Positions 23,609-29,602 are shown, numbered from the stretch's first letter. The stretch: DNA of 64,000 nt from Escherichia coli (GCF_001677475.2 NZ_CP015229.1), one strand, 5' to 3'. Made by a program: numbers and translations. The notes: a model not told the origin generated them from the letters alone.

Positions 23609-24754
23609 ATGAAGAAATTAATCGAACTCCGCCAGCAAAAAACCGCCCTGAAAAACCAGATGCGATCCCTGCTGGAAAAAGCCGACAGTGAAAACCGCAG
23701 CCTGAACGATGACGAAGGCAAACAGTTTGATGAACTGCGTGCAAAAGCCGATTCCCTCGACACAGAAATCTCCCGTCTTGAAGCTGTTGCGGATGAAGAA
23801 CGTAACCAGCCAGGTGTTTGCGTCGAAGAGAAAATTACCAAAGACGAACTGCGCTCTTACATTCTGACCGGGGAAACCCGCAACCTGTCCGGCAGTGTTC
23901 CGGCTGATGGTGGTTATACGGTTATCCCGGAACTGAACAGAGAAATTATGCGTCAGCTTTCTGATGAATCGGTGATGCGTAAAATCTGTACTGTTAAAAC
24001 CATTCACAGCAATGAATTTAAGCAACTGGTTTCTGCCGGGGGCGCGGTCGTTGAACACGGTGAAGAAGGCACTACACGTAACCAGACGGCAACCCCAAAA
24101 CTGAATGAAGTCAGTATCCGCCTGTATCCGATCTACGCTTACCCGAAAACCACTCAGGAAATTATCGATTTTTCCGAAGTCGATATTATGGGCTGGTTAT
24201 CTTCTGAAATTGGCGACACTTTCGTTGATACCGAAGAAACGGATCTGGTTTCTGGTGATGGCGAGAAAAAAGCTAAAGGTTTCCTGGCTTTTCCGCGCAC
24301 TGAGGATAACGACAAAACCCGTCCTTTCGGTACGCTCCAGACGAAAAAAGTTACTGGCAGTCTTAGCGCCGACATGCTGATTGACCTGAAATTTACGCTG
24401 CGCAATAAGTACCGCAAAAAAGCTGTATGGGTGATGAACTCAAATACAGCCGCCTCCGCACAAAAACTGAAAAATGCCACTGGTGATTACATCTGGCGCG
24501 ATCGTTTACAGGCTGGTGATCCTGATTCTCTGCTGGGGCTTCCGGTTGAATATCTGGAATTTATGCCGGACGGTGTGATTGCAGTAGGTGACTTTAAGCG
24601 CGGTTATTTCATCGTTGACCATGAAACCGGTACGCGTACCCGTCCGGATTTCAGCGAACCTGGATTCATTAACATCTATACCCAGAAATATCTGGGCGGT
24701 GGTGTGGTGGATTCGAACGCCATCAAGATTCTGGAAATTCAGGCTGGCAAGTAA
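23609..24754 (+). CDS. Major capsid protein, HK97 family
   Basis: 381 aa; N-terminal coiled-coil delta-domain-like region; C-terminal half homologous to prophage capsid fragments (GFLA, ...KRGYFIVD...). Confidence 0.8.
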   Translation: MKKLIELRQQKTALKNQMRSLLEKADSENRSLNDDEGKQFDELRAKADSLDTEISRLEAVADEERNQPGVCVEEKITKDELRSYILTGETRNLSGSVPADGGYTVIPELNREIMRQLSDESVMRKICTVKTIHSNEFKQLVSAGGAVVEHGEEGTTRNQTATPKLNEVSIRLYPIYAYPKTTQEIIDFSEVDIMGWLSSEIGDTFVDTEETDLVSGDGEKKAKGFLAFPRTEDNDKTRPFGTLQTKKVTGSLSADMLIDLKFTLRNKYRKKAVWVMNSNTAASAQKLKNATGDYIWRDRLQAGDPDSLLGLPVEYLEFMPDGVIAVGDFKRGYFIVDHETGTRTRPDFSEPGFINIYTQKYLGGGVVDSNAIKILEIQAGK

Positions 24755-24803
24755 TGAGCAAAGGGGGCTTCGGCCTCCTTTTTCAGCTTTATGGAGTACA
24801 CCG

Positions 24804-25364
24804 ATGAAAAACACCGATTTTGAAATCCGTACATCTGAACTGACCGCCAGCGATAAAAAACTGGTGGGTTATGCCGTTCGCTGGAACAGCCTTTCAGAAA
24901 TTATTTGGGACGAATTCCGCGAACAGTTCACGCCGGGGGCTTTTGCTGACTATCTGGCGGCGGGTAATGATGTGCGCTGCCTGTATGAGCATGACTATAC
25001 CCGACTGCTGGGGCGCACCAAATCCGGAACACTGGTACTGACTGAGGACAACACCGGGCTACGTTTTGAACTGACACCGCCTGATACCCAGCTTGGAAAA
25101 GATGTGCTTACGCTGGTGGAGCGTGGCGACATTACAGGAATGAGCTTTGGCTTTCGCGCATTATGCGAAGAGTGGAATATCGCGCAAAAACCGTATCTGC
25201 GCACTGTTACCGCCGCAGAACTCCGTGAAATCACGATAACGTCGATGCCTGCTTATCCCGAATCTGGCGTGGAGATTGCCCACCGTTCGTTGTTTGCACA
25301 GCACCCTGAATTACGCCCGGCAGGAAATAATCGTCATCGCTGGGCTGAACTGGCGGGGTTGTGA
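24804..25364 (+). CDS. Prohead protease, HK97 family
   Basis: 186 aa; homologous to prophage protease at 32268..32918 (GYA.RW/GYGSVFG region, ITxxSFG); unusual position after capsid gene. Confidence 0.65.
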   Translation: MKNTDFEIRTSELTASDKKLVGYAVRWNSLSEIIWDEFREQFTPGAFADYLAAGNDVRCLYEHDYTRLLGRTKSGTLVLTEDNTGLRFELTPPDTQLGKDVLTLVERGDITGMSFGFRALCEEWNIAQKPYLRTVTAAELREITITSMPAYPESGVEIAHRSLFAQHPELRPAGNNRHRWAELAGL

Positions 25365-25365
25365 T

Positions 25366-27312: not shown

Positions 27313-27600
27313 ACATGAGCAAAACAGGCTGATACGTGGACTGATAAGGCAACGTGACTTATGGAAGACACAGGAGACAGGGCACAAAGCCAACAGGACA
27401 GGGCGCACAGAACGCACCACAGCGAAGCGATTAACCGACCGTGACCGCGAGGTCATGGAATGTTTTCGCAATCGCTGGTGAGGCTGTCAGAGGGGGTGGG
27501 GGAGGTTTTCAGGACGAAACCGTCCCTGCCGGACACCGACCGCCTCCTCAAATTTTTGTGCACGGTAATTTTTTTGAAAATAATTGGGCGAAAAAAGAAC

Positions 27601-27957
27601 ATGGCAAGACCACCAAAAGCCCCCGCTTACCTGGATGAAATCGCGGTCAGGCAGTGGAAGGAAAAATCGCGCCAGCTTTCCGTGCGGGAAGACCTTACCC
27701 CCGCCGACTGGAGCAATCTGGAACTGTATTGTGTTAACTACTCCATATACCGCAAAGCCGTCGAAGACCTTGCGACGCGCGGGTTCAGCATTGTTAACAG
27801 TCAGGGCAGCGAGAGCAGAAACCCCGCCCTGAGCGCAAAGGCTGACGCGGAAAGAATAATGATCAAAATGGCTTCTTTGCTGGGTTTTGACCCGGTAAGC
27901 CGCCGCAGAAATCCACCGGAAACAGAGGAAGAGGACGAGCTTGACCGCCTGGCATGA
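27601..27957 (+). CDS. Terminase small subunit
   Basis: 118 aa from MARPPKAP; homologous to prophage TerS; overlaps TerL start. Confidence 0.65.
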   Translation: MARPPKAPAYLDEIAVRQWKEKSRQLSVREDLTPADWSNLELYCVNYSIYRKAVEDLATRGFSIVNSQGSESRNPALSAKADAERIMIKMASLLGFDPVSRRRNPPETEEEDELDRLA

Positions 27958-29602
27958 GTACGCAGAAGGCGTAAAAAACGGCAAAATTACGGCCTGTAAA
28001 CGACTGAAACAGGCCGTTAAACGGTATTTTTCTGACCTTGAAAACCCCCTTTACACGTTCGAGCCGGAGGTCGTGGAGCGGTTTATTGCCTTTTCCAGGG
28101 TGTGTCCGCACGTAAAAGGCGCAATGCGCGGTAGCCCCATTGAGCTGGAGCCGTGGCAGCAGTTCGCCTTTGCGTGCATCCTGGGCTTTAAGGTTAAGGC
28201 CACCGGACGGCGCAAATACACCAGCGCATTCATTGAAGTACCGCGTAAAAATGCCAAATCCACGGTCGCCGCTATCCTGGCTAACTGGTTTCTGGTTATG
28301 GAAAACGGGCAGCAGGATATTTACACCGCCGCCGTGAGTCGTGATCAGGCGCGGATCGTGTTTGATGATGCGCGTCAGATGTGCCTTTTATCCCGACCGT
28401 TACGAAAGCGGGTAAATATTCAGGCACACAAGGTGATACACCCGAAAACCAACAGCCTGTTAAAGCCACTGGCAGCAAAAGCGGCAACCATTGAAGGTAC
28501 AAACCCGAGTCTTGCTATTGTGGATGAATATCACCTGCACCCTGACAACGGGGTTTATTCCGCGCTTGAACTGGGAATGGGGGCGCGTCCGGAGGGGTTA
28601 TTATTTGCCATCACCACATCGGGGAGCAACGTTGTTTCAGCCTGTAAACAACACTACGACTATTGCTGCCAGATACTGGATGGTGAAGAGGTGAACGAAT
28701 CCATGTTCGTGCTGATTTACGAGCTGGATGATGAAAGCGAGGTTGACGATCCGGCGATGTGGATAAAGGCGAATCCCAATATCGATGTTTCCGTCGATCG
28801 TGAAAAACTGGCCTCAACCATCCAGAAAGCGCGGGGTATTCCGTCGCAGTGGGTGGAGATGCTCACCAAGCGATTCAATATCTGGTGTCAGGGGGCTACG
28901 CCGTGGATGGGTAACGGTGCATGGGCGGAGTGCGCCGGAACGTTCGCGGAGGCGGATTTATACGGGCAGGAGTGCTACGCGGGGCTGGACTTATCATCAA
29001 CCAGCGATATTTCCAGCGTGTGCTATGCCTTTCCGGTCGGTAAAAAGATTATGCTGGTTTCCCGTCACTATCTGCCGGAATTTCAGCTACAGAACCCCGC
29101 CAATAAAAACCGCGCCATCTATCGCCAGTGGGTAAAGGCGGGCTGGATACGCACAACACCGGGTGACTGCATTGATTATGACCGTATCCGTGATGACATC
29201 ATGGCGGATGCAGAGAATTTCAATATCAGGCTGGTGGGCTTCGATACATGGAACGCCACGCACCTGAGGACGCAGCTACAGGGCGCAGGATTTGAGGTGG
29301 AGCCGTTCCCGCAAACATACCTTCGTTTCAGTCCGGCGGCGAAATCGTTCGAAGTTTTTGTTAACCGGAAGGTGATTGTGCATCGTGGTGATCCGGTGCT
29401 GGCCTGGTCAATGAGTAATGTTGTGATGCAGAGTGACGCGAACGCCAATATCAAGCCGAACAAGAAAAAATCATCCAACAAGATAGACCCGAGCGTTGCG
29501 GCGCTGATGGCGTTTGGCACATTCCAGGCAGAGCATGAGGAATTTGCATTCGATATGAGCGACAGCCACAAAGAGCGGCTTGCGGCGTTTGATGGTGTGT
29601 AA
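27941..29602 (+). CDS. Terminase large subunit (intact)
   Basis: 553 aa; Walker-A-like VPRKNAKST, Walker-B-like LAIVDEYH, C-terminal nuclease region; homologous to both fragments of the split prophage TerL. Confidence 0.85.
   Translation: MTAWHEYAEGVKNGKITACKRLKQAVKRYFSDLENPLYTFEPEVVERFIAFSRVCPHVKGAMRGSPIELEPWQQFAFACILGFKVKATGRRKYTSAFIEVPRKNAKSTVAAILANWFLVMENGQQDIYTAAVSRDQARIVFDDARQMCLLSRPLRKRVNIQAHKVIHPKTNSLLKPLAAKAATIEGTNPSLAIVDEYHLHPDNGVYSALELGMGARPEGLLFAITTSGSNVVSACKQHYDYCCQILDGEEVNESMFVLIYELDDESEVDDPAMWIKANPNIDVSVDREKLASTIQKARGIPSQWVEMLTKRFNIWCQGATPWMGNGAWAECAGTFAEADLYGQECYAGLDLSSTSDISSVCYAFPVGKKIMLVSRHYLPEFQLQNPANKNRAIYRQWVKAGWIRTTPGDCIDYDRIRDDIMADAENFNIRLVGFDTWNATHLRTQLQGAGFEVEPFPQTYLRFSPAAKSFEVFVNRKVIVHRGDPVLAWSMSNVVMQSDANANIKPNKKKSSNKIDPSVAALMAFGTFQAEHEEFAFDMSDSHKERLAAFDGV

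Follow-up and report, generated by a model that had tools for sequence, protein, structure and literature searches.

The DNA examined here is a 64,000-nt stretch of the Escherichia coli genome (GCF_001677475.2 NZ_CP015229.1), referred to over its full length as the window. It holds a lambdoid prophage, with a head module of the HK97 type and an orientation from left to right on the + strand, that is interrupted by two inserts: a 15.4-kb satellite island between the two halves of the gene encoding the large terminase subunit (terL), and a 2.4-kb insertion sequence (IS) between the two halves of the major capsid gene. The island carries a head and packaging module of its own (23609..29602). The analysis established the anatomy of the locus, its boundaries, the family assignments of the encoded proteins and the lesions.

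The satellite island comprises 15,402 bp (14717..30118, + strand) and is bounded by a 7-bp direct repeat, the core TCACGAA being present at both ends (attL, 14710..14716; attR, 30119..30125). The 5' part of the prophage terL gene (13689..14716, + strand; codons 1 to ~342) is 99% identical to residues 1-346 of TerL of phage Evi; its ORF departs from TerL after the residues SARVNFFTK and continues into non-coding island sequence. The 3' part (30119..30855, + strand, beginning with the attR core) is 91% identical to Evi TerL and picks up at HMNVWVTAE. Joining the flanks through one copy of TCACGAA (13689..14716 with 30126..30855) gave an in-frame TerL of 585 aa with the junction sequence AATTTTTTCACGAAACACATG. 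Of 5426 complete E. coli genomes, 905 had a single uninterrupted match (96-99% identity) to an 800-nt query spanning the joined junction, as did 11 phage records, including that of Evi; the terL::int junction as it stands in the window was found in 35 genomes. Since the joined flanks yield an intact TerL that is uninterrupted in other genomes, the split marks the integration site of the island. The crossover falls at TerL residues 342-344, within the nuclease domain (TerL_ATPase and TerL_nuclease of current Pfam replace the older Terminase_1 profile). The island is co-oriented with the prophage late operon and brings no replacement sequence for terL. The split is thus the satellite's own reversible integration and not a lesion, and precise excision of the island should restore terL.

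The head and packaging genes of the island, all on the + strand, encode a major capsid protein of the HK97 fold family (23609..24754; phrog_10, E 5e-85), a prohead protease (24804..25364; phrog_80), a portal (25366..26580; phrog_12), the head-tail adaptor Ad1, a gp6-like connector (26573..26872; phrog_40), an HNH endonuclease (26872..27312; phrog_144), a conserved 61-aa ORF (27296..27481; phrog_3173), the small terminase subunit TerS (27601..27957; phrog_83) and TerL (27941..29602; phrog_9). The spacer between the HNH and terS genes contains a G-rich tract (27482..27600, + strand) and is a putative cos region, a function suggested by comparison of spacers; this is also the location at which a cos site would be looked for when packaging depends on HNH.

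This module was compared with those of phage-inducible chromosomal islands that form capsids (cf-PICIs), of which EcCIEDL933 is the prototype (Alqurainy et al., bioRxiv 10.1101/2022.09.08.507074; He et al., bioRxiv 10.1101/2025.02.11.637232). Published experiments have shown that the proteins of EcCIEDL933 form small T=4 capsids and that the element packages itself only; its transfer is unaffected by deletion of capsid or packaging genes of the helper and is lost on deletion of helper tail genes. The stand-in for EcCIEDL933 in all protein identities was the element at roxA-phoQ in the O157:H7 strain TT12A, inferred to be its counterpart from serotype, size, gene content and presence as the sole copy in the genome. 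Identity to this element was 75% for the capsid, 63% for the protease, 81% for the portal, 58% for Ad1, 84% for the HNH endonuclease, 82% for the 61-aa protein, 88% for TerS and 93% for TerL. The overall span of 58-93% lies in or above the range by which the family was defined, its packaging proteins being 50-90% similar to those of EcCIEDL933 (bioRxiv 10.1101/2022.09.08.507074). The HNH-terS spacer is also near that of the O157 element and largely unlike the prophage spacer (13059..13206). The packaging module had matches at a coverage of at least 80% in 517 of the 5426 E. coli genomes; among O157:H7 strains, the one match is an element of 15 kb that lies between roxA and phoQ and has genes for an integrase, AlpA, a DUF927 primase, a single-stranded DNA-binding protein (SSB), PerC, capsid, protease, portal, head closure, connector, HNH endonuclease, a small ORF, TerS and TerL.

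The length of 15,402 bp between the att cores is within the published cf-PICI size of about 10-18 kb, and the left side of the island carries an integrase, AlpA-type regulators and a replication module, as in cf-PICIs. The island resembles EcCIEDL933 in its 15.4-kb size, in having int and alpA first, followed by regulation and replication genes, and in the order of capsid, protease, portal, connector, HNH, small ORF, TerS and TerL with no tail or lysis genes; no island ORF matched a tail or lysis PHROG. Seven of the eight cf-PICI late genes are present. The absent one is the second head-tail gene (Hc1, phrog_25), which is found in the O157:H7 element; SatelliteFinder Types B and C comprise elements that are without one or two core components. 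The island differs from EcCIEDL933 in that no head-closure ('adaptor') gene lies between portal and connector, in having a RepA-like helicase in place of the DUF927 primase, in possessing two alpA-like genes and a BRO-N gene, in an integrase that probably belongs to another clade, and in being located in a prophage terL and not at roxA-phoQ. The chromosomal cf-PICIs of Z1324SEC0014 (near proX) and 100117 (allE/allC) have a packaging module that is 97-99% identical at the DNA level and likewise without Hc1, but other integrases and chromosomal attachment sites. Matches of the island in the phage collection reached only 3-24% coverage at ~75% identity, for example to the 16.5-kb 'phage' vB_KppS-Ant, and give no direct evidence that the island is packaged.

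The backbone of the island matches a second group of satellites, the helper-embedded PICIs (HE-PICIs), whose integrases form a clade directed at late genes of prophages (Tommasini, Mageeney and Williams 2023, PMC10111431). HE-PICIs are co-oriented with the late operon and disrupt the target gene without a replacement sequence, and both arms of their attP carry the doubled motif tgTGTATTGCantgTGTATTGCa, located ~81 bp upstream and 132 bp downstream of the attP centre (PMC10111431). The doubled TGTATTGC motif was found at both ends of the island near the published spacing. The left copy, tgTGTATTGCacTGTGTATTGCa (14846..14868, + strand), starts ~133 bp from the centre of the core, and the right copy (30022..30044, + strand) ends ~79 bp from it. 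The motif was present in the two helper-embedded loci compared and absent from three chromosomal cf-PICIs, among them those of Z1324SEC0014 and 100117. Furthermore, both attL and attR agree with the alignments published for A_Terminase_1_246, down to the identity block TCACGAA shared by members such as Eco11232.16, Eal51.16 and Eco15324.15. The island has in common with this group (A:Terminase_1:246) the target gene and apparently the codon, near-identical attL and attR flanks, a size of ~15 kb, the late-operon orientation and the four-zone organisation, with the Int/AlpA zone, the Bro zone with C4 RNA, the replication zone and the late zone in the published order. The tyrosine integrase (14888..16111, + strand; phrog_1) has 50% full-length identity to that of 11capE of NRG857c, the founding HE-PICI, and 43% identity to that of the non-embedded O157 cf-PICI, values that are pairwise identities and not a phylogeny. 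The worked HE-PICI example, 11capE, differs from the island in lying in a capsid gene, carrying only capsid and decoration genes and using helper packaging; PMC10111431 does not describe group A:Terminase_1:246 as complete capsid-forming satellites.

A separate observation concerns the annotation of such integrases. The C-terminal third of the island integrase matches phrog_9, the PHROG profile for 'terminase large subunit', at its positions 690-811 (E 5e-25), and terL::int fusions miscalled at HE-PICI junctions are probably among the proteins in this profile. The RefSeq start of the ETEC1749 integrase is likewise placed inside terL.

The capsid, protease, portal, connector, HNH endonuclease, TerS and TerL of the island had each been assigned a homolog in the prophage by a sequence-only reading of the same stretch. 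That assignment and its coordinates were borne out: all seven pairs share a PHROG family (phrog_10, 80, 12, 40, 144, 83 and 9), and five of the seven were detected by BLASTP. Identities were 32% and 39% to the two fragments of the prophage capsid (E 2e-31 and 2e-25), 32% for the portal (E 9e-60), 41% for the HNH endonuclease (E 2e-18), 27% for TerS (E 3e-7), and 33% and 29% to the two fragments of TerL (E 4e-54 and 2e-31). The protease and the connector had no BLASTP match to their prophage counterparts at E<10; the protease pair belongs to phrog_80 (E 2e-60 and 8e-78) and the adaptor pair to phrog_40 (E 1e-27 and 1e-34). The two modules are homologous far beyond chance, as had been claimed, but the term 'paralogous' overstated their relationship, for at 27-41% identity in the pairs detectable by BLASTP they are distant homologues and not recent paralogues. 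The 'connector loop' of the EcCIEDL933 capsid was considered as an indicator of capsid size and was uninformative, the prophage capsid having that segment too.

The head genes of the prophage (31049..36572) were also compared with those of phage Evi. Phage Evi is 94-100% identical to the prophage in terS, terL, neck and tail, and differs in head genes: the Evi portal is 29% identical to that of the prophage, the Evi capsid has no match, and the Evi protease matches the island protease (38%) and not that of the prophage. The pattern points to mosaic exchange of the portal-protease-capsid block.

The state of the prophage as a helper was assessed gene by gene. The lysis cassette (11417..12665, + strand) encodes a holin, an endolysin and an Rz-like spanin (phrog_20/9876, phrog_7 and phrog_13), and is followed by the packaging accessory HNH endonuclease (12708..13058, + strand; phrog_144, E 1e-41) and TerS (13207..13689, + strand; phrog_83), the latter with 97% full-length identity to TerS of Evi. 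Beyond the island and the terL 3' part lie the portal (31049..32290) and prohead protease (32238..32918) genes, both on the + strand (phrog_12 and phrog_80) and equal in length to those of ETEC1749. The major capsid gene is divided into a 5' part (32933..33686, + strand) and a 3' part (36096..36572, + strand) by an ISEc10-like element of the IS21 family, 2409 bp in length (33687..36095, + strand; istA 33780..35279, istB 35276..36031), the ISEc10 family label being taken from the annotation of matching records. The element has imperfect terminal inverted repeats, is flanked by a 7-bp target duplication, ACCCGTG (33680..33686 and 36096..36102), and has istA and istB co-oriented with the late operon. 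Removal of the IS and one copy of the duplication restored an in-frame capsid ORF of 407 aa (phrog_10, E 1e-102). The IS-capsid junction was present in none of the 5426 complete E. coli genomes; since it occurs in no other complete genome searched, the insertion is probably a private and recent event. The earlier statement that the TerL and capsid genes of the prophage are both disrupted therefore requires a distinction, the capsid gene being inactivated by the IS21-family element, whereas terL is split by the island itself and should be healed by excision.

The remaining late genes of the prophage appear sound. The neck genes on the + strand encode Ad1 (36617..36934; phrog_40), Hc1 (36943..37281; phrog_25), Ne1 (37278..37727; phrog_5) and Tc1 (37724..38068; phrog_347), which are 97-100% identical to those of Evi over their full length. 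The lambda-like tail module (38077..52400, + strand; PHROG tail families) comprises the major tail protein, the G and T chaperones, the tape measure, M, L, K, I and J, together with two ORFs at the receptor-binding protein locus, a side fibre and a fibre assembly gene. The major tail protein, G, T, the tape measure (1081 aa), M, L, K and I have full-length Evi matches at 94-100% identity, Rz is 97% identical to that of Evi over residues 5-159 of 159, and strain GB089 has a side fibre with 92% identity to the one here. Over 1035 aa J also matches its GB089 counterpart at 97% identity, and it then ends early (47737..49614 region), at 1084 aa compared with 1137-1232 aa in relatives, about 50-150 aa before its lambda-like relatives. 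After it come ORFs of 123 and 269 aa with identities of 65% and 75% to gp36 and gp37 of Rao1, a lytic, plaque-forming phage with the same layout. A truncated, dead tail-tip gene was considered for J and rejected, the layout of J with the two ORFs being that of a phage that forms plaques. By this comparison, J and the two ORFs are an alternative receptor-binding module and not a truncation, one that looks like a unit exchanged between a temperate lambdoid phage and lytic siphophages. Comparison with Evi, GB089 and Rao1 revealed no lesion among the prophage genes for tail, neck and lysis. The earlier statement that the tail genes and lysis cassette appear intact was thus upheld, and the inactivating tail lesions named beforehand as refuting the proposed pairing of island and prophage were not seen in these comparisons.

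The junction between island heads and prophage tails is less simple. In characterised cf-PICIs two head-tail genes jointly set tail specificity. The portal and Ad1 genes of the island overlap and leave no space for Hc1 between them. Since the island carries no head-closure gene, it needs the Hc1 of a helper besides the tails, and probably borrows it from the prophage along with Ne1, Tc1 and the tails; the prophage Hc1 is 52% identical to that of the O157 element. The proposal that the island builds heads, packages its own DNA and takes prophage tails accordingly has to be extended by Hc1, and otherwise agrees with the established cf-PICI life style (bioRxiv 10.1101/2022.09.08.507074) and with the identities of the packaging module. 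Loss of Hc1 as an adaptation to embedded life was rejected as an explanation because the same Hc1-less module is found in chromosomal cf-PICIs. The motifs LRLDDF and YENRE had been thought common to both connectors; YENRE is, but the prophage protein has CRIDTDD at the position of LRLDDF in the island protein. With one shared motif and 26 of 99 residues identical between the two Ad1 proteins, the connectors make a weak argument for the joining of island heads to prophage tails.

Two island genes for AlpA-like excisionases or regulators (16077..16310 and 16344..16652, + strand; phrog_2790) encode proteins 48-58% identical to AlpA of the O157 element, and are followed by a gene for a BRO-N or anti-repressor-like protein of the Bro zone (16707..17303, + strand; phrog_2593), the ETEC1749 homologue of which is annotated BRO-N. 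Along the + strand from the prophage late operon into the island, convincing terminator-like hairpins occur only after the alpA genes. A C4 antisense RNA, the P4/P1-type immunity RNA, was identified at 18652..18739 (+ strand; Rfam RF01695, 72.3 bits, gathering score 45). The replication zone (19927..22509, + strand; phrog_2850/906, phrog_44 and phrog_994) contains genes for the RepA-like helicase (19927..21336), a 145-aa ORF, SSB (21787..22212) and a PerC-like regulator (22216..22509). An iteron cluster at 29682..29839, with three direct and three inverted copies of TTGCGGGTTA around an AT-rich stretch, is probably an origin of replication or a Rep-binding site. In all three related islands compared, clusters of TTGCGGGTTA follow directly on the gene for the DUF927 primase, and two of these islands have a second cluster after terL (L001, 11639..11744 and 19722..19774; L003, 9059..9272; L006, 9501..9626 and 17539..17591). 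With the primase replaced by the RepA-like helicase, the post-terL cluster alone remains in the island. The genes of the island do not differ in length from those of ETEC1749.

Several further features of the island were recorded. A region of ~2 kb (17300..19400) is without a convincing long ORF and contains the C4 RNA. Within it, a 39-nt segment occurs in two diverged copies that are 77% identical (18461..18499 and 18918..18956), each located at the end of an ORF with a similar ARIRQG peptide, where related islands carry an Icd-like gene; the repeat region may represent an immunity or Icd-like unit that was duplicated. An ORF of 157 aa on the - strand (22841..23314) is located between the replication genes and the head genes, with a bidirectional terminator-like hairpin beside it (22810..22835). 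The ETEC1749 island has a gene annotated as hypothetical that agrees with it in size, position and strand, and the ORF, which had no PHROG or PADLOC match, is a candidate accessory cargo gene. PADLOC detected no defence genes among five island accessory ORFs.

The remainder of the prophage is of lambdoid type. Within the window it encodes a CI-like regulator, Cro-like and CII-like proteins, an O-like initiator and the Q antiterminator (8258..9079, + strand), and genes for tRNA-Met and tRNA-Arg(tct) lie between Q and the lysis genes (10380..10631). A tRNA-Ser(tga) gene (52540..52627) just beyond the tail-fibre assembly gene is probably the prophage attachment site. The catalogued helper 'Eco1012.55.S' of group A:Terminase_1:246 (PMC10111431) also adjoins a tRNA-Ser gene.

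Taken together, the results make it likely that the island is a helper-embedded cf-PICI which integrated by its own tyrosine integrase into terL of the lambdoid HK97-type prophage and which would use the tails of that prophage. The steps of induction, excision, formation of small capsids, exclusive packaging and tail joining we infer from the published work on EcCIEDL933 and HE-PICIs. Induction of the prophage would lead to Q-antiterminated late transcription from the lysis genes through the HNH, terS and terL 5' sequences into int and alpA, and precise excision of the island would restore terL. The excised island would be replicated by its RepA-like helicase and SSB and the iteron region, with a likely origin at 29682..29839, and would express its own capsid, protease, portal, Ad1, HNH endonuclease, TerS and TerL. 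These proteins would form small heads and package only island DNA from the island cos site. The filled heads would be closed by the prophage Hc1, joined to the prophage neck (Ne1 and Tc1) and tails, and released by the prophage lysis genes; Hc1, tails and lysis are required of the prophage since the island is without head-closure, neck, tail and lysis genes. The prophage can no longer package itself because the ISEc10 insertion has knocked out its capsid gene. It is plausible that only island DNA is packaged in this strain, an expectation based on the dead prophage capsid, on the ~15-17 kb that a T=4 head holds and on the differing cos and TerS specificities.

Other explanations of the locus were weighed against this cf-PICI reading. 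The shared gene order and protein families of the two modules could reflect true paralogy by duplication within the prophage, or the island could be a second, complete prophage nested in the first. Both are extremely improbable. They are at odds with an identity of 27-41% between the modules compared with up to 93% to satellites at other loci, with the absence of tail, neck and lysis genes from the island, with its PICI-type int, alpA, Bro, C4 and rep zones, and with the precise att sites of a published satellite group; identity pattern and gene content together refute this explanation. A different view assigns the island a role mainly as parasite or regulator of the prophage ('regulated gene integrity'), its seat in terL delaying or reducing helper packaging, its head genes interfering, and its transfer depending on an incoming phage. 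The entry of the terL 5' ORF into non-coding island DNA conforms to the HE-PICI pattern of target disruption without replacement on which this view draws, and tails of unrelated phages are able to complete cf-PICI capsids, also when lysates are mixed. However, EcCIEDL933 does not interfere with its helpers (bioRxiv 10.1101/2022.09.08.507074), interference would have no target in a strain with the helper capsid already dead, and the co-orientation and intact local tail genes fit local helping, so that we regard a mainly parasitic role as unlikely.

The observations that weigh against the cf-PICI reading bear on whether the pair is active, and most of them also favour an inert, decaying composite in which prophage and island are cryptic remnants, the IS insertion is one step of decay, and nothing is induced, packaged or transferred. 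The insertion in the capsid gene may mark a composite already in decay. No virions were recovered from the single HE-PICI/helper pair that has been induced experimentally, and many HE-PICI helpers look truncated (PMC10111431). The resident prophages of EDL933 neither induce EcCIEDL933 nor give it tails (bioRxiv 10.1101/2022.09.08.507074). The prophage left arm (int, xis and the early left operon) is outside the window, from which inducibility cannot be judged. To these are added the lack of an iteron cluster beside the RepA-like helicase gene, which leaves replication competence uncertain, and the absence of Hc1 from an island with an Ad1 only ~26% identical to that of the prophage, which leaves compatibility with the prophage Hc1 unproven. 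On the other side, all other genes checked are full length with no frameshift in the comparisons with ETEC1749, Evi, GB089 and Rao1, the att sites and arm motifs are intact, and the IS junction, found in no other complete genome, is probably recent. We regard decay as somewhat unlikely.

The satellite family, the nested configuration and the att group are already published (PMC10111431 and the cf-PICI papers), which the sequence-only reading had not recognised for the satellite type and the nesting, and in the library searched no paper was found that studies a helper-embedded capsid-forming PICI experimentally. What is particular here is the combination of a cf-PICI late module complete but for Hc1, a backbone of HE-PICI type seated in terL, and inactivation of the helper capsid gene by a private IS insertion, the last being an addition relative to the catalogued HE-PICI pairs. 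The locus also carries a warning for annotation, in that prophage finders will report a single 'prophage' of 60 kb in which head genes are duplicated and the terminase is 'pseudogenised', although the split of that gene can be reversed. For most cf-PICIs no natural helper is known, whereas an embedded cf-PICI comes with its presumptive helper attached, and the pair can be studied together. The natural knock-out of the helper capsid mirrors the laboratory experiment showing that cf-PICIs need tails only, and makes the strain a clean test case for satellite-only packaging, for dependence on the helper Hc1 and for excision triggered by late read-through. It is conceivable, if rather doubtful, that the pair is a self-contained two-part system in which an Hc1-less cf-PICI is combined with a non-spreading helper that gives induction, head closure, tails and lysis, and from which satellite particles only emerge. 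If so, the prophage would be a domesticated donor of tails and lysis functions, and the pair an intermediate toward a split phage genome or an arrangement like that of a gene transfer agent.

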